A stretch of DNA of 12,214 nucleotides from a virus, in UHGV virus genome UHGV-1821312, one strand, 5' to 3'. The notes below the pieces were generated by a model. That model was given only the letters and a program-made list of their open reading frames with translations. It did no database searches and was not told the DNA's origin. The position numbers were made by a program, and so were the translations under genes. The stretch's first letter is position 1. Each line of letters begins with the position of its first letter. Below are positions 1 to 12,214 of this stretch, one piece after another.

Positions 1-46
1 AGATCTGCGCATGTCTCGTGGGCTCGGAGATGTGTATAAGAGACAG
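1..46. other. Non-genomic library adapter at the 5' end (Nextera/Tn5-type read-2 adapter plus 19-nt mosaic end)
   Basis: Positions 13..27 are GTCTCGTGGGCTCGG and 28..46 are AGATGTGTATAAGAGACAG, the Tn5 mosaic-end sequence. The exact reverse complement is at 12175..12208. Phage sequence starts at 47. Confidence 0.9.
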
Positions 47-361
47 GTCCTGCACAAAACGGGTAAATGCCTGCTGGCTGAGAAGGCGATGTGGAATATA
101 GGTACTGCTGATAATGTCACGCTTAACACTGATCGGGGAGCTGTGGTGCACGGCGGCGCGGAAGGTACGCGCCAGTCCGTCAAAGCTGACGGGCGGCTCA
201 TACCAGCGATCCATCTGCACGCATTCCACATAGTCCAGCAGCTCGCGGCGGTCCAGTACAGGAATGGGATCACCAAAGCTGAAAGCCTCAGCCGTTGGGC
301 TGTTGCCTGGTTTTGTGTTGTGATCAACTGTTACCTGCTTGGTGTTTTTACGTTTGCTCAT
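47..361 (-). CDS. Q: Portal (capsid portal vertex) protein, N-terminal 105 codons only; the rest is lost at the adapter junction
   Basis: My translation of the minus strand from ATG (revcomp of 359..361) gives MSKRKNTKQVTVDHNTKPGNSPTAEAFSFGDPIPVLDRRELLDYVECVQMDRWYEPPVSFDGLARTFRAAVHHSSPISVKRDIISSTYIPHRLLSQQAFTRFVQD with no stop. This resembles the P2 gpQ portal N-terminus as I recall it and sits where Q belongs. GAGGAG lies 8 nt upstream of the ATG. Not in the supplied ORF track because it has no stop in the window. Confidence 0.7.
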
Positions 362-1065
362 TCTGCCAGCTCCTCGTTTGCGAGAGGCCATTCGCACATA
401 AACAGCATTTTCCAGTCCTCTGCTGATAATTCTTTTTTCATATCGTTCAGCCAGTTATCAGTAAACAACATTGCTCCTGATGCTGCTGCGTCATCAGCGG
501 TAAACACCATGCTGGTTACACTGTTGTTTTTGCTTAACTTTTTAAATTCCTGCCATGCCTCCGGGTTAGGGCTGGGAGTGGTGTAGTAGGTGGCGTGGTG
601 GCGTGCGTGCATAGAAATCCCTTTAGCCAGGGCAATCATATTTCTCGGTGATTCAGACCAGGCATACTCTGACACGTAGACATTTCCACTGAGTGCGGTG
701 GCGTGGCACTTGAGGTCGAAAAAATAAATGACCGCACCATTCGGAAGCTCCAGATGACTTTTGCCTGATTTTATTTTTCCAGTGTGCGTATAAGCTGCGG
801 CCTGGCTTAAGAATGCTGACACATAGGCTTTGATTGCCTGCGCAGATGCTGTGCTGCAGCAGAGGAAAATCTGGTTACGCCCGGTATGCAGTGCATCGTT
901 CAGGGCTTCATAGGAAAAAAAGAAATCCGCGCCTGCCTGGCGCATTTTTGTGAGTACACGGTTTCTACTCTTTGGGCCAGTGTTCCACTCATACTGGTAA
1001 GCAAAGAAAGAGCTATCCACCGGAAGTCCCGCGATAGTCATGAGGTTAGTTGGGATTGGGGGCAT
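358..1065 (-). CDS. Stand-alone terminase-ATPase-domain paralog (235 aa from ATG at 1065), function unknown
   Basis: ORF-track protein 358..1068 aligns by eye to residues ~143-378 of the adjacent terminase (FAYQYEW / FNYQRHW; TGRNQIFL identical; LPNGA; GNVYVSEYAW / GNLYLDEYFW; TTPS / STPS; MLFMCEW / LLMCEF), roughly 40% identity. It lacks the terminase N-terminal ~140 aa and the C-terminal ~210 aa. GGAG lies 8 nt upstream of the ATG. I prefer the ATG at 1063..1065 to the track's TTG at 1066..1068. Confidence 0.8.
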   Translation of the reverse strand: MPPIPTNLMTIAGLPVDSSFFAYQYEWNTGPKSRNRVLTKMRQAGADFFFSYEALNDALHTGRNQIFLCCSTASAQAIKAYVSAFLSQAAAYTHTGKIKSGKSHLELPNGAVIYFFDLKCHATALSGNVYVSEYAWSESPRNMIALAKGISMHARHHATYYTTPSPNPEAWQEFKKLSKNNSVTSMVFTADDAAASGAMLFTDNWLNDMKKELSAEDWKMLFMCEWPLANEELAE

Positions 1066-2831
1066 CAAAAAATCTCCACAATATTGCTTGTATTGGCGGA
1101 CTCGCCCTGCAGCGGTTCATTAAACAGTGCGTGCATCGTTGCCCAGGCCAGATCGGCGTGGCTGGCTTCTTCGCTGCGGCTGGCTTCATAGGTCGGGCGG
1201 TTGCCGCTGGCGGTGGTGGCGCGACGGATTGCCATAAATGACTGCGCAATGTCGGTGTGCCCGGCGTCAAACTCCAGACGGCGGTGGCTGATAATGTCGT
1301 AGGCCTTGAGTACCAGGGCGTTTTTAACATTGGGGTTGTAGACAAACTCCCGGACGGCAGGAAAGAACGCTTTCACGTTCTCATAAACCCCGTGACCGAC
1401 GCCGGTCGAGTCGATGCCGATATAGGTCACGTTGTACTGTTCGGTCAATTTTTTGATGGCGTCCGCCTGGGCGCGGAAGTCCATCCCGCGCCACTGGTGA
1501 CGCTCAAGAATGCGGAACTTACCGCCCGGCACGGCTGGCGGTGCCACCACCACGCATCCGGCGCTGTCGCCGTTCTGCGTACCTTTTGCCGGGTCATAAC
1601 CGATCCACACTTCGCGCCAGCCAAACGGGCGAAGGGCCAGTGCATGAAAGTCGGTCCAGACTTCCCAGCTGTCCACCATGCACGCCTGCAGCTCGCTGAG
1701 CGGGAACACGGACGCGAGATCGTCCACAAACTCGCACATCAGCAGGTTCTGGTATTCGCCCGGGCTGTACTCCATGCGCAACTGATCGAGGTCGAAAAGG
1801 TTACATCCGCCGCGCACTGCATCTTCCACGGTGACTATCTGGCGGTATTGCCCGTCTGCACACAGCAGGCCGGGGGCCAGATTGTTGTGTGACAGGTCAA
1901 TGTCCACCTTGTCGGCTTTGTTGCGGCCACGGTTGAACAGCGCACCGGACCAGAACGGATAAGCACTGTGGGTAAGGCTGGATGGCGTGGAAAAATAGGT
2001 TTGTCGCCATTTTTTGTGAATAGCCATACCGGAAGCCACTTTGCGCAGCTCCTGGAATTTCGGTATCCAGAAATATTCATCCAGATACAGGTTGCCGTGG
2101 TAACTCTGGGCCGTGCGGGCATTGGTGCCGAGGAAATACAGTGTGGCCCCGTTGGGAAGCACCATCGGATCGCCTTTCAGCTCCACCTCCACTTCTTTGG
2201 CGAAGTCGATGATGTACTGTTTAAAGACGTGGGCCTGTGCCTTACTGGCGGAAAGGAAAATCTGGTTACGTCCGGTCAGAAGGGCGTCAATCAGGGCTTC
2301 ACGGGCAAAGTAAAAGGTCGCGCCGATCTGGCGTGACTTCAGCAGGTTGCGGATGCGGTTGGTTTTTCCGGCTTCCCACCAGTGGCGCTGGTAGTTGAAC
2401 ATAGAGGAATGGAAGATTTCTTCCAGTTTCTCAATCTGTTCATCGGTGAAAACATTCTTTTCCGGCTGACGGCGCGGGCCTTTGTTGCGGTTGGCGACGT
2501 TAGGGTTTAAGTCGGCTTCGTTGCCGCCATTGTTAAACTTGCCGATCCGCGCGTGGCGCTCCGACTGGCGCGCCAGCAGGTCAATCTCTTTGAAATCTTT
2601 CCCTTCTTTGTGCTCCTTCATAATGAGCTGGCAGTAGCGTGCGGCGGTGGTGAGCTGCATCTGATCCAGCGGCCCATAGTCACCCCACTTGTCGCGTTTT
2701 TTCCAGCTGTGAACGGTTGCAACTTTCTCGCCCAGCATTTCAGCAATGCGGGCTACGCGGTATCCCTGAAAGTACAGCAGCATGGCCTGCCGACGGGGAT
2801 CGAGATCTGCGGGTGTCAGTGTGGTGTTCAT
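1065..2831 (-). CDS. P: Terminase ATPase (large) subunit, P2 gpP family, 588 aa
   Basis: Size and sequence are typical of P2-type terminase ATPase subunits. N-terminal region RRQAMLLYFQGYRVARIAEMLGEKVATVHSWKKRDKW, then a lambda-gpA-like deviant P-loop KSRQIGAT, a Walker-B-like LYLDE and a C-terminal domain. Divergent from the O-N-M-L operon as in P2. Confidence 0.92.
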   Translation of the reverse strand: MNTTLTPADLDPRRQAMLLYFQGYRVARIAEMLGEKVATVHSWKKRDKWGDYGPLDQMQLTTAARYCQLIMKEHKEGKDFKEIDLLARQSERHARIGKFNNGGNEADLNPNVANRNKGPRRQPEKNVFTDEQIEKLEEIFHSSMFNYQRHWWEAGKTNRIRNLLKSRQIGATFYFAREALIDALLTGRNQIFLSASKAQAHVFKQYIIDFAKEVEVELKGDPMVLPNGATLYFLGTNARTAQSYHGNLYLDEYFWIPKFQELRKVASGMAIHKKWRQTYFSTPSSLTHSAYPFWSGALFNRGRNKADKVDIDLSHNNLAPGLLCADGQYRQIVTVEDAVRGGCNLFDLDQLRMEYSPGEYQNLLMCEFVDDLASVFPLSELQACMVDSWEVWTDFHALALRPFGWREVWIGYDPAKGTQNGDSAGCVVVAPPAVPGGKFRILERHQWRGMDFRAQADAIKKLTEQYNVTYIGIDSTGVGHGVYENVKAFFPAVREFVYNPNVKNALVLKAYDIISHRRLEFDAGHTDIAQSFMAIRRATTASGNRPTYEASRSEEASHADLAWATMHALFNEPLQGESANTSNIVEIF

Positions 2832-2877
2832 GGCACAAACCTACAGCCTTGAATGAAGGCTTTCCCCGCCTGCGGTT

Positions 2878-2895
2878 TGTGTGGTTGTCGGTACA
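2878..2895. promoter_or_regulatory. TGT-N12-ACA element in the divergent P/O late-promoter region (candidate Ogr/Delta-type activator site)
   Basis: TGT at 2878..2880 and ACA at 2893..2895 are separated by 12 nt, inside the 142-bp P-O intergenic region. The centre lies ~88 bp upstream of the O ATG and ~55 bp from the P ATG. P2-family late promoters are known to carry this half-site dyad centred near -55. Confidence 0.4.
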
Positions 2896-2973
2896 AATAC
2901 CGCGCATTGTTTCACTACCCCCATCACCGCAACCATAAGGCTCCAGTAAGTTTTTTTTAACGGAGCACGGCTC

Positions 2974-3807
2974 ATGACAGTGAAAGCAAAGCGTTTTCGC
3001 ATCGGGGTGGAAGGTGCCACCACCGACGGACGCGAAATCCAGCGTGAATGGCTGGAACAGATGGCAGCCAGCTACAACCCGGCGGTGTATACCGCGCTGA
3101 TTAACCTTGAGCACATCAAGTCTTATCTGCCGGACAGCACCTTTAACCGCTACGGCAAGGTGACGGCGCTGTTTGCTGAGGAAATCACGGAAGGTCCGCT
3201 GGCAGGCAAGATGGCGCTGTATGCCGACGTTGAGCCAACGGAGTCCCTGGTGGAACTGGTGAAAAAAGGCCAGAAATTATTCACCTCTATGGAAGTCAGC
3301 CCGAAGTTCGCTGATACGGGCAAAGCCTACCTGGTCGGCCTGGCTGCCACTGATGACCCTGCCAGTCTGGGCACTGAAATGCTGACATTCAGCGCCAGTG
3401 CAGCCCATAACCCGCTGGCAAACCGCAAGCAGAATCCTGCCAATCTCTTTACCGCTGCAGAGGAAACGGTGATCGAACTGGAGGAAGTCCAGGACGACAA
3501 ACCGTCCCTGTTTTCCCGCGTCACGGCGCTGTTCACCAAAAAAGAGCAGTCCGATGACGCCCGGTTCTCTGATGTGCATAAGGCCGTGGAACTGGTCGCC
3601 ACTGAGCAGCAAAACCTGAGCGCGCGAACCGAAAAATCTCTGTCTGAGCAGGAAGAACGCCTGTCTGAACTGGAGTCTGCTCTGCAGAAGCAGCAAACCG
3701 CCTTTAATGAACTGGTGAATAAGCTGAGTCATGAAGACAGCCGCCAGGACTACCGCCAGCGTGCAACAGGCGGTAACGCCCCCGCTGACACTCTGACCAA
3801 TTGCTGA
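2974..3807 (+). CDS. O: Capsid scaffolding protein, P2 gpO family, 277 aa
   Basis: Motifs FRIGVEG, INLEH, YLVGLAATDDPASLGTE and the C-terminal TNC match gpO as I recall it. GGAG lies 8 nt upstream of the ATG. Confidence 0.9.
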   Translation: MTVKAKRFRIGVEGATTDGREIQREWLEQMAASYNPAVYTALINLEHIKSYLPDSTFNRYGKVTALFAEEITEGPLAGKMALYADVEPTESLVELVKKGQKLFTSMEVSPKFADTGKAYLVGLAATDDPASLGTEMLTFSASAAHNPLANRKQNPANLFTAAEETVIELEEVQDDKPSLFSRVTALFTKKEQSDDARFSDVHKAVELVATEQQNLSARTEKSLSEQEERLSELESALQKQQTAFNELVNKLSHEDSRQDYRQRATGGNAPADTLTNC

Positions 3808-3823
3808 TGGAGCACAAAACCCG

Positions 3824-4882
3824 ATGAAGAAGAATACCCGCTTTGCTTTTAACGCTTACCTGCAGCAGCTGGCGCGTCTGAACGGTGTGGCAGTTGAAGA
3901 ACTGTCCAGCAAGTTCACTGTAGAGCCGTCTGTACAGCAGACGCTGGAAGACCAGATCCAGCAGTCCGCCGCTTTCCTGACGCTGATTAACGTCACGCCA
4001 GTGACTGAGCAGTCTGGTCAGTTGCTGGGGCTGGGTGTTGGCAGCACCATTGCCGGAACCACTGACACCACCGCGAAAGAGCGTGAGCCTGTCGATCCGA
4101 CGCTGATGGTTGATGCGGAATATAAATGCGAGCAGACCAACTTTGACACGGTGCTGACCTACGCGAAGCTGGACCTGTGGGCGAAGTTTCAGGATTTCCA
4201 AGTGCGCATCCGTGACGCCATCGTGAAACGTCAGGCACTGGACCGCATCATGATCGGCTTTAACGGCGTGAAGCGTGCGAAAACCTCCAACCGTAGTGAA
4301 AACCCGCTGCTGCAGGATGTTAACAAAGGCTGGCTGCAGAAAATCCGTGAGGATGCACCGGATCACGTCATGGGCAGCACCACCACGGGCGGTGAAACCA
4401 CTCCGGGCGCGGTGAAAGTCGGGAAAGGTGGCGAATATGCCAACCTGGACGCCGTAGTGATGGATGCCGTCAATGAGCTTATCGATGTGGTCTACCAGGA
4501 CGATGACGATCTGGTGGTGATTTGCGGTCGTGAACTGCTGTCTGACAAGTATTTCCCGCTGGTCAACAAAGAGCAGGAAAACAGTGAAAAACTGGCTGCC
4601 GATATGATCATCAGTCAGAAACGCATGGGTGGCCTGCAGGCCGTGCGTGCGCCGTTCTTCCCGCCGAATGCGCTGCTGATCACCCGTCTGGATAACCTGT
4701 CCATCTACTGGCAGGAAGACACCCGCCGCCGTTCAGTTATCGACAACCCGAAACGTGACCGGATTGAAAATTTTGAATCCGTTAACGAAGCCTATGTGGT
4801 TGAGGACTACCGCTGCGCCGCACTGGTGGAAAACATCCAGATTGGCGATTTCAGCGCCGCTGCAGCCGAAACCGGAGCGTAA
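3824..4882 (+). CDS. N: Major capsid protein, P2 gpN family, 352 aa
   Basis: TRFAFNAYL, FTVEPSVQQTL, LDLWAKFQDFQVRIRDAIVKRQ, GFNGVKRA, VVICGRELLSDKYFPLVNKEQENSEKLAADMIISQKR all match gpN closely. Position after O. Confidence 0.92.
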   Translation: MKKNTRFAFNAYLQQLARLNGVAVEELSSKFTVEPSVQQTLEDQIQQSAAFLTLINVTPVTEQSGQLLGLGVGSTIAGTTDTTAKEREPVDPTLMVDAEYKCEQTNFDTVLTYAKLDLWAKFQDFQVRIRDAIVKRQALDRIMIGFNGVKRAKTSNRSENPLLQDVNKGWLQKIREDAPDHVMGSTTTGGETTPGAVKVGKGGEYANLDAVVMDAVNELIDVVYQDDDDLVVICGRELLSDKYFPLVNKEQENSEKLAADMIISQKRMGGLQAVRAPFFPPNALLITRLDNLSIYWQEDTRRRSVIDNPKRDRIENFESVNEAYVVEDYRCAALVENIQIGDFSAAAAETGA

Positions 4883-4885
4883 CCC

Positions 4886-5536
4886 ATGAGCCTGAGTCCC
4901 GCACGGCAGCATCGCCTGCGCGTTCAGGCTGAACAGGCCGCCCGCGAGGGCGGCAGCGTTCGCCACGCGTCGGGCTATGACCTGATGCTGCTGCAACTGG
5001 CGGAAGACCGCCGCCGTCTCAAGAGCGTTCAGTCCACGGTGAAAAAAGCGGAAATCAAGGTGGAGCTGCTGCCGAAATATGCCGCCTGGGCGGAGGGCGT
5101 CCTGGCTGCCGGAGGCGCTCAACAGGATGACGTGCTGATGTACGTGATGCTGTGGCGCATTGATGCCGGAGATTATGCCGGGGCGCTGGAGATCGGGCGT
5201 CATGCCCTGCGTCATGGCTGGGTGATGCCGCTGGGTAACCGCAACGTGCAGACCGTGCTGGCAGAGGAAATGGCAGACGCGGCGCAGAGCGCAATGCTTG
5301 CCGCCACCGGCTTTGATGCCGATCTGTTGCTGCAGACGCTGGAGCTGACAGACGGTCTGGATATGCCGGACCAGTCACGGGCGCGTCTGCATAAAGCGAT
5401 TGGCGCTGTCCTGAGTGAAAGCAACCCGGCTTCCGCCCTTAATCATCTCAACCATGCGTTACAGCTCGATCCCCGCTGTGGCGTGAAAAAAGACAAACAG
5501 CAGCTGGAGCGCAGACTGCGCAATGACAGCCGCTGA
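4886..5536 (+). CDS. M: Terminase endonuclease (small) subunit, P2 gpM family, 216 aa
   Basis: Position directly after N, with GGAG 8 nt upstream. Size and sequence character fit gpM. Confidence 0.85.
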   Translation: MSLSPARQHRLRVQAEQAAREGGSVRHASGYDLMLLQLAEDRRRLKSVQSTVKKAEIKVELLPKYAAWAEGVLAAGGAQQDDVLMYVMLWRIDAGDYAGALEIGRHALRHGWVMPLGNRNVQTVLAEEMADAAQSAMLAATGFDADLLLQTLELTDGLDMPDQSRARLHKAIGAVLSESNPASALNHLNHALQLDPRCGVKKDKQQLERRLRNDSR

Positions 5537-5631
5537 CAGAACGTGCCCCCGCGCACGGGCGGCACGGGGTGGCGAAAGGCACTGCCACATCAAAACCCCG
5601 TCCACCGCCCTCTATTTCAGGAGAAAGCAGC

Positions 5632-6096
5632 ATGAAGTTTGTTGCGCCAGAACAGGCACCGGAACAGGCGGAAATCATCAGGAATACGCCGTTCTGGCCT
5701 GATGTGGACCTGTCGGAGTTTCGCAGCGTGATGCGCACTGACGGCACGGTGACGCAGCCGCGTTTAAAGCAGGTTGCGCTGTCGGCAATTTCGGAGGTCA
5801 ACGCAGAGCTGTATGAGTTTCGCAGACGCCAGCAGATGCTGGGGTATGCCTCGCTGGCAGAGGTTCCGGCGGAACAGCTGGACGGCAAAAGTGAGCGCAT
5901 TCAGCACTATTTCAACGCGGTTTACTGCTGGGCACGCGCCATGCTCAACGAACGTTACCAGGACTATGACGCCACGGCGTCCGGTGTGAAGCGGGGCGAG
6001 GAACTGGCGGAAGCAAGCGGTGATTTGTGGCGTGACGCCCGCTGGGCCATCAGCCGGGTGCAGGATGCGCCGCACTGCACAGTGGAGCTTATCTGA
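5632..6096 (+). CDS. L: Head completion/stabilization protein, P2 gpL family, 154 aa
   Basis: Position between M and X. ATG at 5632 is preceded by AGGAG at the right spacing; the track's upstream start at 5569 is a GTG with no good RBS. Stop overlaps the X start (TGATG). Confidence 0.8.
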   Translation: MKFVAPEQAPEQAEIIRNTPFWPDVDLSEFRSVMRTDGTVTQPRLKQVALSAISEVNAELYEFRRRQQMLGYASLAEVPAEQLDGKSERIQHYFNAVYCWARAMLNERYQDYDATASGVKRGEELAEASGDLWRDARWAISRVQDAPHCTVELI

Positions 6097-6299
6097 TGAA
6101 AGTGCGTGCGCATCAGTATGACACGGTGGACGCGCTTTGCTGGCGTCATTACGGGCGCACGCAGGGTGTCACGGAGCAGGTACTGAAGGCAAATCCGGGG
6201 CTTGCCGAATACGGCCCCTTTTTACCTCACGGGCTGCAGGTGGAGCTGCCGGACATTCCGACCACCACCACTGTGCAGACCGTCCAGCTATGGGACTGA
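6096..6299 (+). CDS. X: Tail protein X, P2 gpX family, 67 aa
   Basis: 67-aa protein at the canonical position after L; size matches P2 gpX. Start overlaps the L stop. Confidence 0.85.
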   Translation: MKVRAHQYDTVDALCWRHYGRTQGVTEQVLKANPGLAEYGPFLPHGLQVELPDIPTTTTVQTVQLWD

Positions 6300-6302
6300 A
6301 TT

Positions 6303-6518
6303 ATGACGCTTGAGCGAATCAGCGCCTTTATCACGTATTGCATCGCCGTCGTGCTGGCCTGGCTGGGCGATTTGTCCATCAAGGATGCCTCAACGCTGGG
6401 CGGCCTGATGATTGGTGTGCTGATGCTGGCTATCAACTGGTACTACAAACACAAAGCCTACCAGCTTCTGCGCGACGGGCAGATCTCGCGGGAGGACTAT
6501 GAATCCATCAATCGTTAA
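6303..6518 (+). CDS. Holin, 71 aa, two predicted transmembrane segments (class II / pinholin-like)
   Basis: Two hydrophobic stretches, ISAFITYCIAVVLAWLG and LGGLMIGVLMLAINWYY, followed by a charged C-terminus. Lies immediately upstream of the lysozyme and overlaps it by 20 nt. Shorter than the P2 Y holin as I remember it. Confidence 0.7.
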   Translation: MTLERISAFITYCIAVVLAWLGDLSIKDASTLGGLMIGVLMLAINWYYKHKAYQLLRDGQISREDYESINR

Positions 6519-7011
6519 ACGCTGCCTTGTCGGGACCGTGCTGGCTATTGCTGCCACGCTGCCGGGTTTTCAGCAGCTTCACACCTCCGTGGAGGGGCTG
6601 AAACTGATTGCCGATTACGAAGGCTGTCGTCTGCAGCCGTATCAGTGCAGCGCGGGTGTCTGGACCGACGGCATTGGTAATACATCGGGCGTCATTCCCG
6701 GCAAAACCATTACGGAACGACAGGCAGCGGAAGGGCTGATCTCCAACGTGCTGCGTGTGGAGCGGGCGCTGGAAAGGTGTGTGAAGCAACAGCCGCCGCA
6801 GAAGGTGTATGACGCGGTGGTGTCGTTTGCCTTCAACGTGGGAACGGGCAATGCCTGCAGTTCCACACTGGTGAAATTGCTCAATCAGCGGCGCTGGGCG
6901 GATGCGTGCCGACAGTTGCCGCGCTGGGTGTATGTAAAAGGTGTGTTTAATCAGGGGCTGGATAACCGCCGAGCGCGGGAGATGGCCTGGTGCTTACAGG
7001 GAGCAAACTGA
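6499..7011 (+). CDS. Endolysin, phage lysozyme (T4-lysozyme / GH24-like) with an N-terminal hydrophobic SAR-like segment, 170 aa
   Basis: VEGLKLIADYEGCRLQPY...WTDGIGNT resembles the E...D...T catalytic region of T4-type lysozymes. The N-terminus VKRCLVGTVLAIAATLPGF is a weakly hydrophobic Gly/Ala-rich stretch typical of signal-arrest-release domains. Confidence 0.8.
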   Translation: MNPSIVKRCLVGTVLAIAATLPGFQQLHTSVEGLKLIADYEGCRLQPYQCSAGVWTDGIGNTSGVIPGKTITERQAAEGLISNVLRVERALERCVKQQPPQKVYDAVVSFAFNVGTGNACSSTLVKLLNQRRWADACRQLPRWVYVKGVFNQGLDNRRAREMAWCLQGAN

Positions 7012-7012
7012 A

Positions 7013-7390
7013 ATGAAAAAGAAATTAATCAGCGGGCTGTTTCTGATGTTATGGATGGGGCTGTTGATCGCAACAATGATGTATCCGCAGGGGATTTTTC
7101 CGGTACTGGCAGCATCCGGCGTTTGGGTAGCCTGTCTGCTGACATGGGCAGTAATTCCGGTAGCACTGGCTGCGTTAATTAAGAACGGCCCGCTCTGGCA
7201 GGAGTTGAGGGCATCTTTGCTGAAGAGCATTACCCGAAAAGAAAACGTATTTATCAGCTGGGTGATGCGATTGCTGATTATCGTAAGTCTCGCCTGGACG
7301 GGGTGGGCCATTACCCTGGTCTTTTATCTGCTGACCGTTATTGCCTTCTGGATCACACGTAACCAGATGGCGCAACAGGTAGCCGCATGA
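7013..7390 (+). CDS. lysA: LysA-like polytopic membrane protein (lysis accessory), 125 aa from ATG at 7013
   Basis: Several hydrophobic helices (LISGLFLMLWMGLLIATMMY, VWVACLLTWAVIPVALAALI, LLIIVSLAWTGWAITLVFYLLTVIAFWI). Sits between endolysin and spanins as P2 lysA does. Its stop overlaps the lysB start (ATGA). Confidence 0.6.
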   Translation: MKKKLISGLFLMLWMGLLIATMMYPQGIFPVLAASGVWVACLLTWAVIPVALAALIKNGPLWQELRASLLKSITRKENVFISWVMRLLIIVSLAWTGWAITLVFYLLTVIAFWITRNQMAQQVAA

Positions 7391-7815
7391 ACCGGTTGCT
7401 GCTGGTTGTGCTGGCGTTATTACTGGCGACGCTGGGCTGGCAGAGGTGGCGGCTGGCTGATGCCAGCCAGACCATCAGCACGCAGGCAGACGAACTGCAG
7501 AGCAAAAGCCAGGCGCTGGCAAAGAGCAACAGCCAGCTTATCAGCCTGTCCATTCTGACTGAAACCAATAACCGAGAGCAGGCGCGGCTCTATGCCGAAG
7601 CAGAACAGACCATTGCACTGCTGAGACAACGACAACGCCGGATTGAGGAACTGAAACGTGAGAACGAGGATTTACGCCGCTGGGCTGATACTCCTTTGCC
7701 TGCTGACATTATCCGGCTGCGGAAACGTCCGGCATTTACCGGAGGTGCAGCTTACCGTCAGTGGTTGTCCGCGGGTAACGCCGTGTCGACTGGATCAGGC
7801 AGCGCCGCGCACTAA
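7387..7815 (+). CDS. lysB: i-spanin (LysB / Rz-like), 142 aa
   Basis: N-terminal membrane anchor LLLVVLALLLATLGW followed by a coiled-coil-like, charge-rich periplasmic domain. Contains the nested lysC reading frame. Confidence 0.75.
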   Translation: MNRLLLVVLALLLATLGWQRWRLADASQTISTQADELQSKSQALAKSNSQLISLSILTETNNREQARLYAEAEQTIALLRQRQRRIEELKRENEDLRRWADTPLPADIIRLRKRPAFTGGAAYRQWLSAGNAVSTGSGSAAH

Positions 7816-7948
7816 CGGTGATCTGAACGCGTTGCTGGATGAAACGGAGGCCGCCTGGGCGGTCTGTGCAGACAAAGTGGACATGATTATTGCATGTCAG
7901 GAGCGAAACAGTGAACAAACCACAATCCCTGCGCCACGCCCTCAATAA
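7658..7948 (+). CDS. lysC: o-spanin outer-membrane lipoprotein (LysC / Rz1-like), 96 aa, begins inside lysB in another frame
   Basis: GTG start at 7658 with GAGGA 8 nt upstream. Signal peptide plus lipobox MRTRIYAAGLILLCLLTLSG-C. Starts within lysB and runs past its end into the start of R, as described for P2 lysC. Confidence 0.7.
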   Translation: MRTRIYAAGLILLCLLTLSGCGNVRHLPEVQLTVSGCPRVTPCRLDQAAPRTNGDLNALLDETEAAWAVCADKVDMIIACQERNSEQTTIPAPRPQ

Positions 7949-8342
7949 AGCAGTGCCTTATGTCCGTAATAACCCGGACAAACTGCATCTGTTTGTGGAT
8001 AACGGTTCGCTGGTTGCCACGGGGGCCAACTCCATGTCATGGGAGTACCGCTACACCCTGAACGTGGTGATTGAGGATTTCAGCGGCGACCAGAATCTGC
8101 TGATGGCCCCGGTTTTGCTGTGGCTGCGGGATAACCAGCCCGATGCCATCAATAACCCGGCGTTACGGGAAAAGCTATTCACCTTTGAGGTGGATATTCT
8201 GCGCAACGATGTCTGTGATATCAGCCTTAACCTGCAACTGACGGAGCGTGTGCTGGTCAGCACTGACGGCAGTGTGTCGAACGTTGAAGCGGTAGCGGAA
8301 CCCGATGAACCTGAAGAAATGTGGACGGTGAAACGTGGCTGA
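7911..8342 (+). CDS. R: Tail completion protein, P2 gpR family
   Basis: Position and sequence fit gpR. I prefer GTG at 7911 (AGGAG 7 nt upstream) to the track's TTG start at 7890. Stop overlaps the S start. Confidence 0.8.
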   Translation: MNKPQSLRHALNKAVPYVRNNPDKLHLFVDNGSLVATGANSMSWEYRYTLNVVIEDFSGDQNLLMAPVLLWLRDNQPDAINNPALREKLFTFEVDILRNDVCDISLNLQLTERVLVSTDGSVSNVEAVAEPDEPEEMWTVKRG

Positions 8343-8781
8343 ATTGCAGAAGGTGGACGACTGGCTGAGTGCCTTGCTGGCGAATCTGGAGCCAGCTGCA
8401 AGAAGCCGCATGATGCGTCAGCTGGCGCAGGAACTGCGCCGGACACAGCAGCAGAATATCAGGATGCAGCGCAACCCTGACGGCAGCAGCTATGAACCGC
8501 GACGGGTAACAGCACGCAGTAAAAAAGGCCGCATCAAACGTCAGATGTTTGCGAAGCTGTGCACCACAAAATACCTGAAAACTGCCGCCAGCGCCGACTC
8601 TGCCAGCGTGCAGTTTGAAGGCAAGGTGCAGCGCATTGCCCGCGTTCATCACTACGGCCTGCGTGATCGCGTCAGTCGCAAAGGACCGGAGGTCCGTTAC
8701 GCAGAGCGCCGCCTGCTGGGTGTAAATGATGATGTTGAGGCAATGACCCGCGACATGATTCTGCAATGGCTGGCGGGGTGA
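8335..8781 (+). CDS. S: Tail completion / virion morphogenesis protein, P2 gpS family, 148 aa
   Basis: GTG start overlapping the end of R. Position and sequence character fit gpS. Confidence 0.8.
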   Translation: MAELQKVDDWLSALLANLEPAARSRMMRQLAQELRRTQQQNIRMQRNPDGSSYEPRRVTARSKKGRIKRQMFAKLCTTKYLKTAASADSASVQFEGKVQRIARVHHYGLRDRVSRKGPEVRYAERRLLGVNDDVEAMTRDMILQWLAG

Positions 8782-8784
8782 TCT

Positions 8785-8804
8785 TTGTATCAGCACTGAT
8801 ACAA
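8785..8804. promoter_or_regulatory. 20-bp near-perfect palindrome TTGTATCAG-CA-CTGATACAA containing TGT-N12-ACA (candidate late-promoter activator site for the V operon)
   Basis: Two 9-bp perfect inverted arms around a 2-bp centre, located in the 68-bp S-V intergenic region. Centre is ~55 bp upstream of the V ATG. Matches the dyad described for P2 late promoters. Confidence 0.5.
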
Positions 8805-8849
8805 GTTGCAGCACTGCCGCCTTTCTTCCCGTGATGGCAACCTTTCCCT

Positions 8850-9428
8850 ATGAACGCACAATTAACCGAAATCATGCGCCTTATCACCAACCTGATCCGC
8901 ACTGGTGTAGTCACCGAAGTGGACCGGGAAAACTGGCTTTGCCGGGTGAAAACGGGCGACCTTGAAACCAACTGGATTAACTGGCTGACGCTGCGCGCGG
9001 GTAATGCCCGCACATGGTGGAAACCATCGGAAGGTGAGCAGGTGGTGCTGCTGAGTCTGGGCGGCAATCTGGAGACTGCCTTTGCGCTGCCCGCTGTCTA
9101 TTCGAATCAGTTCGCACCACCGTCGACGTCGGCGGACGCCTGCGTGACAGAACATCCTGACGGTGGCTGGTTTGAATACGAACCCGCCACCGGGCGCTGG
9201 TATGTCAGGGGCATCAAATCCATGGTCATTGAGGCTGCCAACAACATCACCCTGAAAACCAGTGAGTTTGTGCTGGAGGCTGACCGCACGCGTATTAACA
9301 GCGAAGTGGTGATCAATGGTGGCGTTACCCAGGGCGGCGGAGCGATGAGTTCTAACGGGATCGTGGTTGATGCGCATCAGCATACTGGCGTTCTGAAAGG
9401 CGGTGACACAACCGGAGGCCCGGTATGA
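8850..9428 (+). CDS. V: Baseplate assembly / tail spike protein, P2 gpV family, 192 aa
   Basis: NLIRTGVVTEVD, CRVKTGDLETNWINWLTLRAGNARTWWKPSEGEQVVLLSLGGNLETAFALPAVYS and the C-terminal HQHTG...GGDTTGGP align well with gpV as I recall it. Confidence 0.88.
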   Translation: MNAQLTEIMRLITNLIRTGVVTEVDRENWLCRVKTGDLETNWINWLTLRAGNARTWWKPSEGEQVVLLSLGGNLETAFALPAVYSNQFAPPSTSADACVTEHPDGGWFEYEPATGRWYVRGIKSMVIEAANNITLKTSEFVLEADRTRINSEVVINGGVTQGGGAMSSNGIVVDAHQHTGVLKGGDTTGGPV

Positions 9429-9784
9429 CGCTTTATAGCGGGATGAACAATACCAGCGGCAAAGCCATTACTGATATTGACCATCTGCGCCAGTCGGTGC
9501 GGGACATTCTGCTGACGCCGCAGGGTAGCCGCATTGCTCGCCGTGAATATGGTTCCCTGCTGTCGGCACTGATAGACCAGCCACAAAATCCGGCGTTACG
9601 CCTGCAGGTCATGTCGGCAGTGTATGTGGCGCTGAGTCGCTGGGAGCCACGGCTGACGCTGGATTCCATCACCATCAACAGCCATTTTGACGGTTCAATG
9701 GTGGTGGAGCTGAGCGGGCGGCGTAATAACGGTGTGCCTGTTTCCCTTTCCGTATCAACAGGAGCAGAGAATGGCAGTGATTGA
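9425..9784 (+). CDS. W: Baseplate wedge protein, P2 gpW (gp25-like) family, 119 aa
   Basis: Start overlaps the V stop (ATGA). Size and position are canonical for gpW. Confidence 0.85.
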   Translation: MTLYSGMNNTSGKAITDIDHLRQSVRDILLTPQGSRIARREYGSLLSALIDQPQNPALRLQVMSAVYVALSRWEPRLTLDSITINSHFDGSMVVELSGRRNNGVPVSLSVSTGAENGSD

Positions 9785-10679
9785 CCTTTCGCAGTTACCT
9801 GCGCCGCAGATTGTGGATGTGCCGGACTTTGAGACGCTGCTTGCCGAACGAAAGGCAGAATTTGTGGCGCTTCATCCGAAAGATGAGCAGGAAGCAGTGA
9901 TCCGCACGCTGGAACTGGAATCTGAACCCGTCACCAAATTGCTGCAGGAGAACGCTTACCGTGAGTTGCTTCTGCGCCAGCGCATTAACGAAGCCGCGCA
10001 GGCTGTGATGGTGGCTTACGCGATGGGCGGCGATCTTGACCAGATCGCTGCCAACTACAACGTGAAACGCCTGACGGTGACGCCTGCTGATAATGACGCT
10101 GTGCCGCCCGTTGCAGCAGTGATGGAAAGCGATGAAGCGTTACGCCTGCGTGTGCCTGCAGCTTTTGAAGGGCTTTCAGTTGCGGGGCCAACTGCAGCTT
10201 ATGAATTTCATGCCCGAAGCGCCGACGGTCGGGTGGCGGATGCCAGTGCAACCAGCCCGGCACCTGCAGAGGTGGTGCTGACTGTCCTTAGCCGCGAAGG
10301 CGATGGAACTGCAGAAAAAGACCTGCTGGACGTGGTGGAAAAAGCTCTGAACAGTGAGAACGTCCGCCCGGTGGCTGACCGTCTTACGGTTCGCAGCGCA
10401 GAAATCATCCCGTATCGCGTGGAAGCCACCATTTTTCTCTATCCGGGACCGGAAGCAGAGCCGGTAATGGCAGCGGCAAAAGCCAGCCTGCAGAAGTACA
10501 TCGCCAGTCAGACGCGTCTTGGTCGGGATATTCGCCGTAGCGCCATCTTTGCCGCCCTGCATGTTGAGGGTGTGCAGCGTGTGGAGCTGGCTTCTCCTCT
10601 GGCGGATGTGGTCCTGAACAAAACGCAGGCGGCATCATGTACGCAGTGGAGCGTAACCAACGGAGGAACGGATGAATAG
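9771..10679 (+). CDS. J: Baseplate protein, P2 gpJ family, 302 aa
   Basis: ATG at 9771 with AGGAG upstream gives 302 aa, the length I recall for P2 gpJ. The track's start at 9732 lies inside W and is unlikely. Confidence 0.88.
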   Translation: MAVIDLSQLPAPQIVDVPDFETLLAERKAEFVALHPKDEQEAVIRTLELESEPVTKLLQENAYRELLLRQRINEAAQAVMVAYAMGGDLDQIAANYNVKRLTVTPADNDAVPPVAAVMESDEALRLRVPAAFEGLSVAGPTAAYEFHARSADGRVADASATSPAPAEVVLTVLSREGDGTAEKDLLDVVEKALNSENVRPVADRLTVRSAEIIPYRVEATIFLYPGPEAEPVMAAAKASLQKYIASQTRLGRDIRRSAIFAALHVEGVQRVELASPLADVVLNKTQAASCTQWSVTNGGTDE

Positions 10680-11277
10680 TCTGCTGCCACCGGGTTCAAC
10701 ACCACTGGAGCGCCGACTGGCGCAAACCTGCAGCGGGATTTCTGATCTGCAGGTGCCGCTGCGTGACTTGTGGAATCCGGCAACCTGTCCGGTCAGTTTC
10801 CTGCCTTATCTCGCCTGGGCGTTCTCTGTGGATCGCTGGGACGAGGGCTGGACAGAAAGCGTCAAACGCCAGGTAGTGAAGGATGCTTTTTATATTCATC
10901 AGCATAAAGGAACCACCAGTGCCGTGCGGCGGGTGGTGGAACCGTTCGGATTCCTGATCCGCATTATTGAGTGGTGGCAGACCGGAGAGGCTCCGGGCAC
11001 GTTTCGCCTGGATATCGGCGTGCAGGACCAGGGCATCACTGAAGATACCTATCTGGAACTTGAGCGACTGATAAGCGATGCCAAACCATGTAGCCGCCAC
11101 ATGATCGGCATGTCCATCAATCTGCAGACCAGCGGCCCGCATTGGGTGGGAGCCGCCAGCTATCTTGGCGAAGAAATCACGATCTATCCGTATATCAACG
11201 AAACAATTATTTCTGGCGGCACCGCGCATGAAGGCGGGGCGGTCCATGTTATTGACACAATGAGAGTGAATCCATGA
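10672..11277 (+). CDS. I: Baseplate / tail protein, P2 gpI family, 201 aa
   Basis: GGAGG 5 nt upstream of the ATG. Overlaps the J stop and the H start. Canonical position. Confidence 0.85.
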   Translation: MNSLLPPGSTPLERRLAQTCSGISDLQVPLRDLWNPATCPVSFLPYLAWAFSVDRWDEGWTESVKRQVVKDAFYIHQHKGTTSAVRRVVEPFGFLIRIIEWWQTGEAPGTFRLDIGVQDQGITEDTYLELERLISDAKPCSRHMIGMSINLQTSGPHWVGAASYLGEEITIYPYINETIISGGTAHEGGAVHVIDTMRVNP

Positions 11278-12174
11278 GCACAAAATTTTATACCCTGCTG
11301 ACGGATATTGGCGCGGCGAAACTTGCCAGCGCCGCCGCGCTCGGTGTGCCGCTAAAAATTACCCATATGGCGGTGGGCGATGGTGGCGGAACATTGCCGA
11401 CGCCGGACGCAAAGCAGAGTGCACTGGTAAATGAGAAACGTCGGGCTGCGCTGAATATGCTCTATATCGACCCACAGAACAGCAGCCAGATTATTGCTGA
11501 ACAGGTGATCCCTGAAAACGAGGGCGGTTGGTGGATACGTGAAGTGGGCCTGTTTGATGAGTCCGGGGCATTGATTGCCGTGGGAAACTGCCCGGAAAGC
11601 TATAAGCCGCAACTGGCTGAAGGTAGCGGGCGCACTCAGACCGTGCGCATGGTGCTGATTACCAGCAGCACGGACAATATCACCCTGAAAATCGACCCTG
11701 CTGTAGTGCTGGCAACCCGCAAGTATGTGGATGACAAGGCACTGGAGCTGAAGGTGTACGCGGATGATCAGATGGCAAAACATCTTGCCGCACCGGACCC
11801 GCATTCACAGTATGCACCCAAAGAAAGTCCGACGTTTACCGGGACACCCAAAGCGCCAACGCCAGCGGCGGGGAATAATACCACGCAGCTTGCGACCACC
11901 GCGTTTGTTCAGGCGGCACTCACGGCCCTTATTAATGATGCGCCAGCCACGCTGGACACGCTGAAAGAAATAGCCGCAGCCATTAACAATGATCCGAATT
12001 TCAGTACCACCATTAACAATGCGCTGGCACAAAAAGCGCCGCTGTCGAGTCCGGCACTCACCGGAACGCCAACAGCACCTACTGCGGCACAGTCGGTCAA
12101 CAATACACAGATTGCCACTACAGCTTTTGTGAAATCGGCGATTGCAGCAATGGTGGGGTCTGCACCTGCGGCAC
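11274..12174 (+). CDS. H: Tail fiber protein, P2 gpH family, N-terminal ~300 codons; 3' end cut off by the adapter
   Basis: My translation from ATG at 11274 (overlapping the I stop) gives MSTKFYTLLTDIGAAKLASAAALGVPLKITHMAVGDGGG...ESYKPQLAEGSGRTQTVRMVLI..., the conserved N-terminal domain of P2-type tail fibers. The frame runs without a stop into the adapter at 12175. Confidence 0.85.
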
Positions 12175-12214
12175 CTGTCTCTTATACACATCTCCGAGCC
12201 CACGAGACATGCGC
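12175..12214. other. Non-genomic library adapter at the 3' end (reverse complement of the 5' adapter)
   Basis: CTGTCTCTTATACACATCT at 12175..12193, then CCGAGCCCACGAGAC. Confidence 0.9.

Follow-up and report, generated by a model that had tools for sequence, protein, structure and literature searches.

A stand-alone terminase ATPase-domain paralog with an exchanged Walker A/Walker B residue pair between the large terminase and portal genes of a P2-like phage

The DNA analysed here is a stretch of 12,214 nucleotides from UHGV virus genome UHGV-1821312 (the window), which comes from the late genes of a P2-like (Peduoviridae) phage or prophage. Between the gene for the full-length large terminase, gpP, and the portal gene Q lies a short gene whose product is a free-standing paralog of just the ATPase domain of gpP. 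Two residues at the presumed Mg2+ site of this paralog are substituted: the Walker A motif ends in Asp and the Walker B motif carries Ser. The paired substitutions are family-wide and beyond chance, and they recur together in relatives that have diverged to about 35% identity. The pair looks like a selected rewiring of the active site and not like decay, and it is plausible, judging from the motifs, that the paralog is a nucleotide-binding, catalytically impaired regulator. The explanation that we tentatively put first is that it may be a nucleotide-binding ATPase-domain module with slow or no hydrolysis, produced together with gpP and the portal protein, which would modulate packaging.

Homology and active-site motifs of the paralog

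The paralog was 32% identical to gpP over 237 columns in BLASTP (E = 3e-32) with the motifs in register, and alignment of the paralog-family profile to the gpP profile with hhalign gave the same register with a probability of 100% (E = 2.9e-43). The alignment with gpP begins at gpP residue 141. The sole Pfam match of the paralog was Terminase_6N (PF03237), which covered residues 43-227 and scored 61.8 bits against a curated cut-off of 22, and the protein also matched PHROG 3746, "terminase large subunit", with E = 1.4e-86. The ATPase domain of P2 gpP-type terminases has the Pfam family, the predicted fold and the lambda/P2-style Lys-first P-loop K-x-R-Q-x-G-A-x in common with the paralog, which by homology and fold belongs to the terminase ATPase-domain superfamily. 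Unlike gpP, the paralog has no N-terminal Terminase_5 region and no C-terminal RNase H-like nuclease Terminase_6C (residues 410-571 of gpP), ends at the ATPase lid, and lacks a lid/subdomain insertion of about 28 residues. It is mildly acidic, with an isoelectric point of 6.4 versus 8.7 for the basic ATPase core of gpP, and it differs from gpP further in the Thr-to-Asp and Asp-to-Ser changes, in being accessory and in evolving fast. A recent tandem duplication was considered and rejected, as its identity to the gpP next to it is just 32% and no other full-length gpP is more similar to it.

The P-loop reads KSRQIGAT in gpP (residues 165-172) and KMRQAGAD in the paralog (40-47), where Asp47 (GAT, 925-927) stands in the position expected for the Mg2+-coordinating Thr/Ser of Walker A. 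The Walker B segment reads GNLYLDEYFW in gpP (246-255) and GNVYVSEYAW in the paralog (127-136); Ser132 (TCA, 670-672) stands in place of the Walker B Asp, and the catalytic Glu133 (667-669) is kept. Two defining features of the active site are thus missing from the paralog, namely a Walker A motif that ends in a Mg2+-coordinating Ser/Thr and an Asp that closes the hydrophobic Walker B strand, while the catalytic Glu, the P-loop Lys and Arg, the adenine-binding YQ motif and the coupling (C) motif are all present. Since the paralog has neither a nuclease domain nor a gpP-type N-terminal region and fails these two active-site features, it does not count as a large terminase. A preliminary description of the window, made by eye, had paired the same Walker A and Walker B segments and named the same two substituted codons; its coordinates and residues were exact. 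It had also listed the Lys, the Glu and TTPS as retained, which was borne out, and the Arg and YQ are kept too.

Profile-based alignment, the check proposed in that description, placed the catalytic motifs in register with both gpP and T4 gp17. The gp17 sequence was translated from NC_000866 and has YQ at 142-143, SRQLGKT at 161-167 and MIYIDE at 251-256. With hhalign, four motifs of the gpP and paralog-family profiles aligned to gp17: YQ, the P-loop ([KM]RQxGA[TD] with SRQLGKT), Walker B (LYLDE and VYVSE with MIYIDE) and the C-motif (STPS and TTPS with TTTP). These alignments of a profile to the single gp17 sequence are statistically weak (E about 0.003-0.005, with low nominal probability), and the motif assignment holds because they are backed by the Pfam match, by the AlphaFold model and by a published table of terminase motifs, which gives KSA-R79-VGYS and VAGYD-E179 for lambda and LS-R162-QLGKT and MIYID-E256 for T4 (PMC6379665). 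The assignment made by eye was correct. Sequence searches of the PDB with gpP and with the family profile returned nothing relevant. A comparison was also made for a trans-acting arginine finger; the candidate Arg residues of gpP (NARTAQ, TGRNQ) vary even within the set of gpP homologues, and no assignment was made.

The AlphaFold model of the paralog had a predicted local distance difference test (pLDDT) score of 81.6 and a predicted template modelling (pTM) score of 0.82. In this model, a strand at 35-40, the P-loop and a helix at 46-61 form the strand / P-loop / helix arrangement, the strand at 128-132 terminates at S132-E133, and a strand at 158-162 precedes TTPS. The best Foldseek matches were terminase ATPase domains, those of T4 gp17 (2o0j/2o0h), P74-26, PhiV-1, D6E, HK97 and Sf6. 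Against the PDB, 2o0j was matched with E = 1.2e-7, and template modelling (TM) scores were 0.72 for 8dgc_E, the PhiV-1 terminase chain bound to Avs3, and 0.71 for 5oe8_B. Among viral predicted structures, every top fold match was a terminase.

Conservation and covariation of the substituted pair

Among clustered public proteins, 56 relatives of the same size were identified, 225-241 residues long if complete and 36-92% identical to the query, with hosts in Escherichia, Salmonella, Citrobacter, Klebsiella, Leclercia, Phytobacter, Pantoea, Yersinia and Buttiauxella. In a 46-member alignment (34-92% identical to the window protein), Q24, K40, R42, G45, A46, D47 and E133 were invariant, which makes the nucleotide pocket the most strongly constrained region of the paralog. 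S132, T162, T163 and P164 were conserved in at least 90% of the same 46 members. One further record, a 190-residue E. coli "tail fiber protein" (P0057; PF07484), was 68% identical to the paralog over 24% of its length and may be chimeric or mis-assembled.

A profile search of 1.84 billion cluster representatives yielded 483 relatives at E <= 0.001. Motifs were counted in 202 proteins, made up of 150 listed of these 483 and the proteins of the first search, and a protein was kept if both motif columns aligned; the counts given here hold among the matches listed. Every protein of at least 480 residues (58/58) keeps Thr/Ser in Walker A and Asp-Glu in Walker B. Asp together with Ser was found in 59 short proteins, and Asp together with Pro, Ala, Gly or Leu in 8 more. 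The Lys, the Arg and the Glu are kept in all 60 of the 60 Asp/Ser proteins. Tabulated over cluster representatives, Walker A Asp goes with a Walker B residue other than Asp 68 times and with Asp once, and Walker A Thr/Ser goes with Walker B Asp 102 times and with another residue 8 times (Fisher's test, p about 5e-39, shared ancestry uncorrected). Most Asp-type proteins form one clade in a neighbour-joining tree, and therefore this uncorrected p value shows the retention of the pair more than its repeated origin. The residues of one hydrogen-bonded pair have been exchanged reciprocally, from Thr...Asp to Asp...Ser, with near-perfect covariation.

Ser132 is encoded by TCN codons in Escherichia, Citrobacter, Pantoea and a second clade, and by AGY codons in Yersinia, Buttiauxella, Serratia and Atlantibacter. 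Because a shift between TCN and AGY must cross a residue other than Ser, Ser itself is selected at this position. Yersinia phage vB_YenM_201.16 has Gly (GGT) at position 132, and this codon, from which a single change leads to either Asp (GAT) or Ser (AGT), is plausibly a trace of the mutational path.

Other short paralogs show further combinations. A sister Asp-type group (P0095, P0102) has the motifs K[AP]RQ[IV]GAD and GDVY[LV][SP]EW and also includes Ser/Ser and Ser/Pro pairs, and there are short clades without the Lys or without the Glu. P0067 and P0073 (L015 5001-5750 and L014 76-849) are ATPase-only proteins in the slot between P and Q that have the canonical KSRQIGAT and Walker B Asp-Glu. 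In size, ATPase-only architecture and position they are like the window paralog, and it is the clade of the window that has the conserved Asp/Ser swap. These canonical versions possibly represent the ancestral state or an independent duplication.

Genomic setting and selection

The order gpP-paralog-Q was found in every examined member of the clade of the window, and the loci with this order span Escherichia, Citrobacter, Pantoea, Yersinia, Serratia and Buttiauxella. Loci were taken from phages vB_YpM_MLG42, vB_YenM_201.16 and 500465-1, from Buttiauxella, Pantoea and a metagenome contig, from E. coli A38 (NZ_CP028738, locus AOY91_RS15570) and TUM2820, and from eight GTDB species genomes. Stop/start overlaps (TGATG, TAATG or ATGA) after a GGAG-like Shine-Dalgarno sequence form the junctions on either side of the paralog, and the overlap with gpP was present at 10/10 loci examined. 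In the eight GTDB genomes, a tblastn search with the full Q protein of E. coli A38 (L011) placed the portal gene directly downstream of the paralog.

The ratio of nonsynonymous to synonymous substitution rates (dN/dS) of the paralog was 0.19-0.48 against seven relatives, and that of gpP for the same genome pairs was 0.009-0.19, with only unsaturated dS values used. Protein identity for the paralog versus gpP in the same genome pair was 42% versus 85% with Pantoea and 77% versus 99% with E. coli TUM2820. The guanine-plus-cytosine (GC) content is 48.7% in the paralog (window 361-1065) versus 56.7% in gpP (1068-2831), and at third codon positions it is 0.53 versus 0.70. The paralog is a functional gene that is compositionally foreign and much less constrained outside its nucleotide pocket.

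Proposed role and alternative explanations

Kozlova et al. describe the Mg2+-coordinating Ser/Thr of Walker A and the Asp of Walker B as two strictly conserved, mutually hydrogen-bonded residues of P-loop NTPases, and report that replacement of either abolishes activity (PMC9599734). In T4 gp17, any change within Walker B, even an Asp/Glu exchange, abolishes packaging, and a DE-to-ED mutant binds ATP more tightly and does not hydrolyse it (PMC3012670). Because of these mutant results, a protein that binds nucleotide and hydrolyses it poorly is the default expectation. The swap seen here is reciprocal, covarying and selected, and as read from the motifs it fits a rewired site as well as a dead one. 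An Arg-toggle with lid closure has been described for terminases (PMC6379665); the covarying exchange within the pair, together with the invariance of the toggle Arg and the remaining catalytic residues, says that the pocket is used and is silent on ATP turnover. The preliminary description had suggested a pseudo-ATPase that binds nucleotide and is catalytically impaired, which would fit a regulatory or inhibitory role. Its reading of the protein as a paralog of the terminase ATPase domain in which both residues of the Mg2+ site are replaced stands; it missed that the exchange is reciprocal, covarying and under selection, that the gene is an accessory, fast-evolving cassette, that relatives occur in an early operon, and that canonical versions occupy the same P-Q slot.

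In the role that we put first, nucleotide binding, reduced hydrolysis, a partner and a direction of effect are what we infer, along the following lines. The paralog, encoded between gpP and the portal gene, is translated through termination-reinitiation coupling. Its pocket is intact save for the exchanged Mg2+-holding pair: the P-loop keeps its Lys and Arg, and the YQ motif, the catalytic Glu, the C-motif and the lid are all there. Nucleotide would still be bound, with Mg2+ handling altered and turnover slow or none. The protein might then act as a nucleotide-dependent switch or as a dummy subunit that contacts gpP, and possibly also the portal, by way of the surfaces of its ATPase domain, and packaging would be modulated. 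Such a function would be non-essential and accessory.

Several observations weigh against a packaging modulator of this kind. The window-type gpP was found in 1228 of 5426 complete E. coli genomes and the paralog in 21. The DNA of the window gpP is 95-99% identical to gpP in 1196 E. coli records, and in Cartapus, 813R9, SEN8 and Fels-2 the P and Q DNA is about 95% identical with P joined straight to Q; near-identical P and Q function without the paralog, which is an accessory cassette and dispensable for packaging. The paralog evolves several-fold faster than gpP, which is odd for a partner of the conserved gpP and gpQ. The sister proteins P0095 and P0102 are encoded outside the packaging operon: their genes follow the replication gene A directly, in the early operon and on the early strand (L013 5001-5750; L026 5001-5738), and P abuts Q there. 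Finally, an enzyme that hydrolyses ATP would likewise be expected to keep the catalytic Glu and the toggle Arg and to show a reciprocal swap.

Such an enzyme would be fully active with an inverted Mg2+/proton-relay dyad, in which Asp47 coordinates Mg2+, Ser132 serves as its hydrogen-bond partner and the retained Glu, Lys and Arg hydrolyse ATP. We regard this as unlikely. The near-perfect covariation of the swap, the invariance of all remaining catalytic residues and the selection for Ser specifically at Walker B, in both codon classes, speak for it, and the canonical relatives P0067 and P0073 suggest that the ancestral function in this slot used an active site. It conflicts with the reported loss of activity that follows either replacement in P-loop NTPases (PMC9599734) and in T4 gp17 (PMC3012670). 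The relatives also tolerate Pro, Gly, Ala or Leu at Walker B, or have Ser/Ser or Ser/Pro pairs, which is unexpected for a precise dyad, and the Lys or the Glu has been lost altogether in other short clades; such variants speak against a finely tuned dyad and favour a role in binding or switching.

The patchy accessory distribution, low GC content and fast evolution of the paralog could instead point to a conflict factor, that is, a mimic of the terminase ATPase that titrates or blinds host sensors (Avs1-3, Upx) or hinders competing P2-like phages or P4-type satellites, a reading to which we likewise give a low probability. The sister proteins sit in the gpA-gpQ interval, a known P2 defence hotspot (PMC9122126). 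The sensors Avs2, Avs3 and Upx recognise the ATPase domain of terminase together with its site for ATP and Mg2+: Avs3 reads active-site residues and bound ATP, the contact of Avs2 with the domain is bridged by an ATP molecule that touches the hydration shell of Mg2+, and for EcAvs2 and Upx the ATPase domain alone is a sufficient trigger (PMC13601566). Both substituted residues are those that shape the Mg2+ site, and the Avs3-bound chain 8dgc_E is among the top fold matches. This support is circumstantial throughout, and a free ATPase domain could equally serve as an additional trigger, just as T4 vs.8 triggers EcAvs2 (PMC13601566). The PADLOC-DB defence profiles gave no match at E <= 0.01 for the window protein, P0095, P0102 or P0067, literature searches gave no anti-Avs decoy of such a kind, and tight translational coupling in the P-Q late operon points to a stoichiometric packaging role.

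Somewhat more doubtful still is that the paralog represents a new class of phage accessory factor, with a dyad adapted to an arms race over the terminase ATPase site, or a functional ATPase with the Ser/Thr-Asp pair in reversed orientation. If the former were true, the factor could bind sensors of the Avs2/Avs3/Upx type non-productively or poison the use of terminase by a rival or satellite. That the paralog is what is left of a decaying partial duplication of gpP, or an artefact of assembly or annotation, is effectively excluded. The protein is shorter than gpP and has lost two "essential" residues, adapter sequence is present at both contig ends, and the gene is split in the record of phage 500465-1; yet members from different genera, at 35-92% identity, agree in length and frame, dN/dS is well under 1, the active-site residues are invariant, and the same arrangement occurs in complete chromosomes. 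The split in 500465-1 (L001 3501-4260, a 176-residue "terminase large subunit") had suggested a pseudogene, an idea that was rejected: it stems from three 1-nucleotide deletions in homopolymer runs, which are probably read errors, and the same record also has a split portal gene.

Relation to known systems

The nearest described analogue is T4 vs.8, which like the paralog is a free-standing phage terminase ATPase-domain paralog beside a complete terminase. By its published description, it is set apart by canonical Walker motifs, by belonging to another phage family and by not lying between terminase and portal genes (PMC13601566).

Non-catalytic subunits are known from other P-loop machines, such as the alpha subunit of F1-ATPase and the delta/delta' subunits of clamp loaders, in which paralogs with altered sites bind nucleotide or partners and regulate the active subunits. 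They resemble the paralog in concept; in these subunits the catalytic Glu or the whole P-loop has been lost, and Mg2+ ligands are kept or dropped differently. We know of no reciprocal Walker A/Walker B exchange in a non-catalytic P-loop subunit.

The family is already held in databases, as PHROG 3746 and under the NCBI name "terminase large subunit domain-containing protein"; NCBIfam and PADLOC returned no family for the paralog. Literature searches returned no paper on the family, on its P-Q position, on the motif swap or on a second or truncated P2-like terminase. The database label "terminase large subunit" is misleading, since the protein has no nuclease domain and an altered active site. 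A large family under purifying selection with an exchanged Ser/Thr-Asp pair offers a natural experiment on the mechanism of P-loop NTPases, and it is a widespread, uncharacterised accessory gene inside the most conserved P2-like operon. P4-type satellites depend on the P2-type terminase. As host immune sensors (Avs1-3, Upx) read this very domain with its ATP/Mg2+ site and the satellites need this terminase, a free, rewired ATPase domain is a candidate packaging regulator or conflict factor.

Features of the window and neighbouring genes

The positions of the genes, motifs and junctions are collected in Table 1. Q was identified as the portal gene from matching E. coli DNA that is annotated "phage portal protein".

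Table 1. Genes, motifs and junctions in the window (positions in nucleotides of the window).
Feature	Position	Strand	Basis or detail
Portal gene Q, N-terminal 105 codons; cut off by the insert end	47..361	-	Translation
Paralog/portal junction, ATGA	358..361	-	Paralog stop TGA 358-360 overlaps portal ATG 359-361
Paralog (mini-terminase) coding sequence, 235 residues + stop	358..1065	-	Open reading frame; stand-alone paralog of the gpP ATPase domain
C-motif TTPS, residues 162-165	571..582	-	Aligned to gpP STPS 281-284 and T4 gp17 TTTP 285-288
Walker B strand and catalytic Glu, GNVYVSEYAW, residues 127-136	658..687	-	Alignments; model strand 128-132
Walker A/P-loop KMRQAGAD, K40-D47	925..948	-	Alignment to gpP KSRQIGAT and T4 161-SRQLGKT-167
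Adenine-binding YQ motif, Y23-Q24	994..999	-	Aligned to gpP Y147-Q148 and T4 gp17 Y142-Q143
gpP/paralog junction, TGATG	1063..1077	-	GGAG Shine-Dalgarno 1074-1077; gpP stop TGA 1065-1067 overlaps paralog ATG 1063-1065
gpP, full-length large terminase, 588 residues	1065..2831	-	Pfam Terminase_5, Terminase_6N, Terminase_6C
gpP Walker B, LYLD251-E252	2076-2081	-	Canonical motif
gpP Walker A, KSRQIGAT	2316-2339	-	Canonical motif
Scaffold gene O, capsid gene N, small terminase gene M, gene L, gene X, holin, lysozyme and tail genes		+	

A six-T run adjoins the gpP stop at window 1065-1073 (ATTTTTTGATG), where a -1 slip would yield a gpP-paralog fusion. Programmed -1 frameshifting was rejected as a general mechanism, as the T6 run is not conserved in other lineages, though the overlap architecture is.

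The cargo just past Q varies between elements. DarT and a macro-domain protein are encoded there in E. coli TUM2820 (L012 1-1191), a TIR-domain protein in phage 500465-1 (L001 6297-6725), and SocA_Panacea proteins in Buttiauxella-type elements (L004 8715-9185; L015 7652-8122). This differing cargo illustrates a variable hotspot beside the packaging operon.

Nextera adapter sequence is present at both contig ends, at 1-46 and 12175-12214 (CTGTCTCTTATACACATCT then CCGAGCCCACGAGAC), and the real insert spans about 47-12174. Small open reading frames at the ends, such as 11..586, which begins MSRGLGDVYKRQ, are partly translations of adapter.

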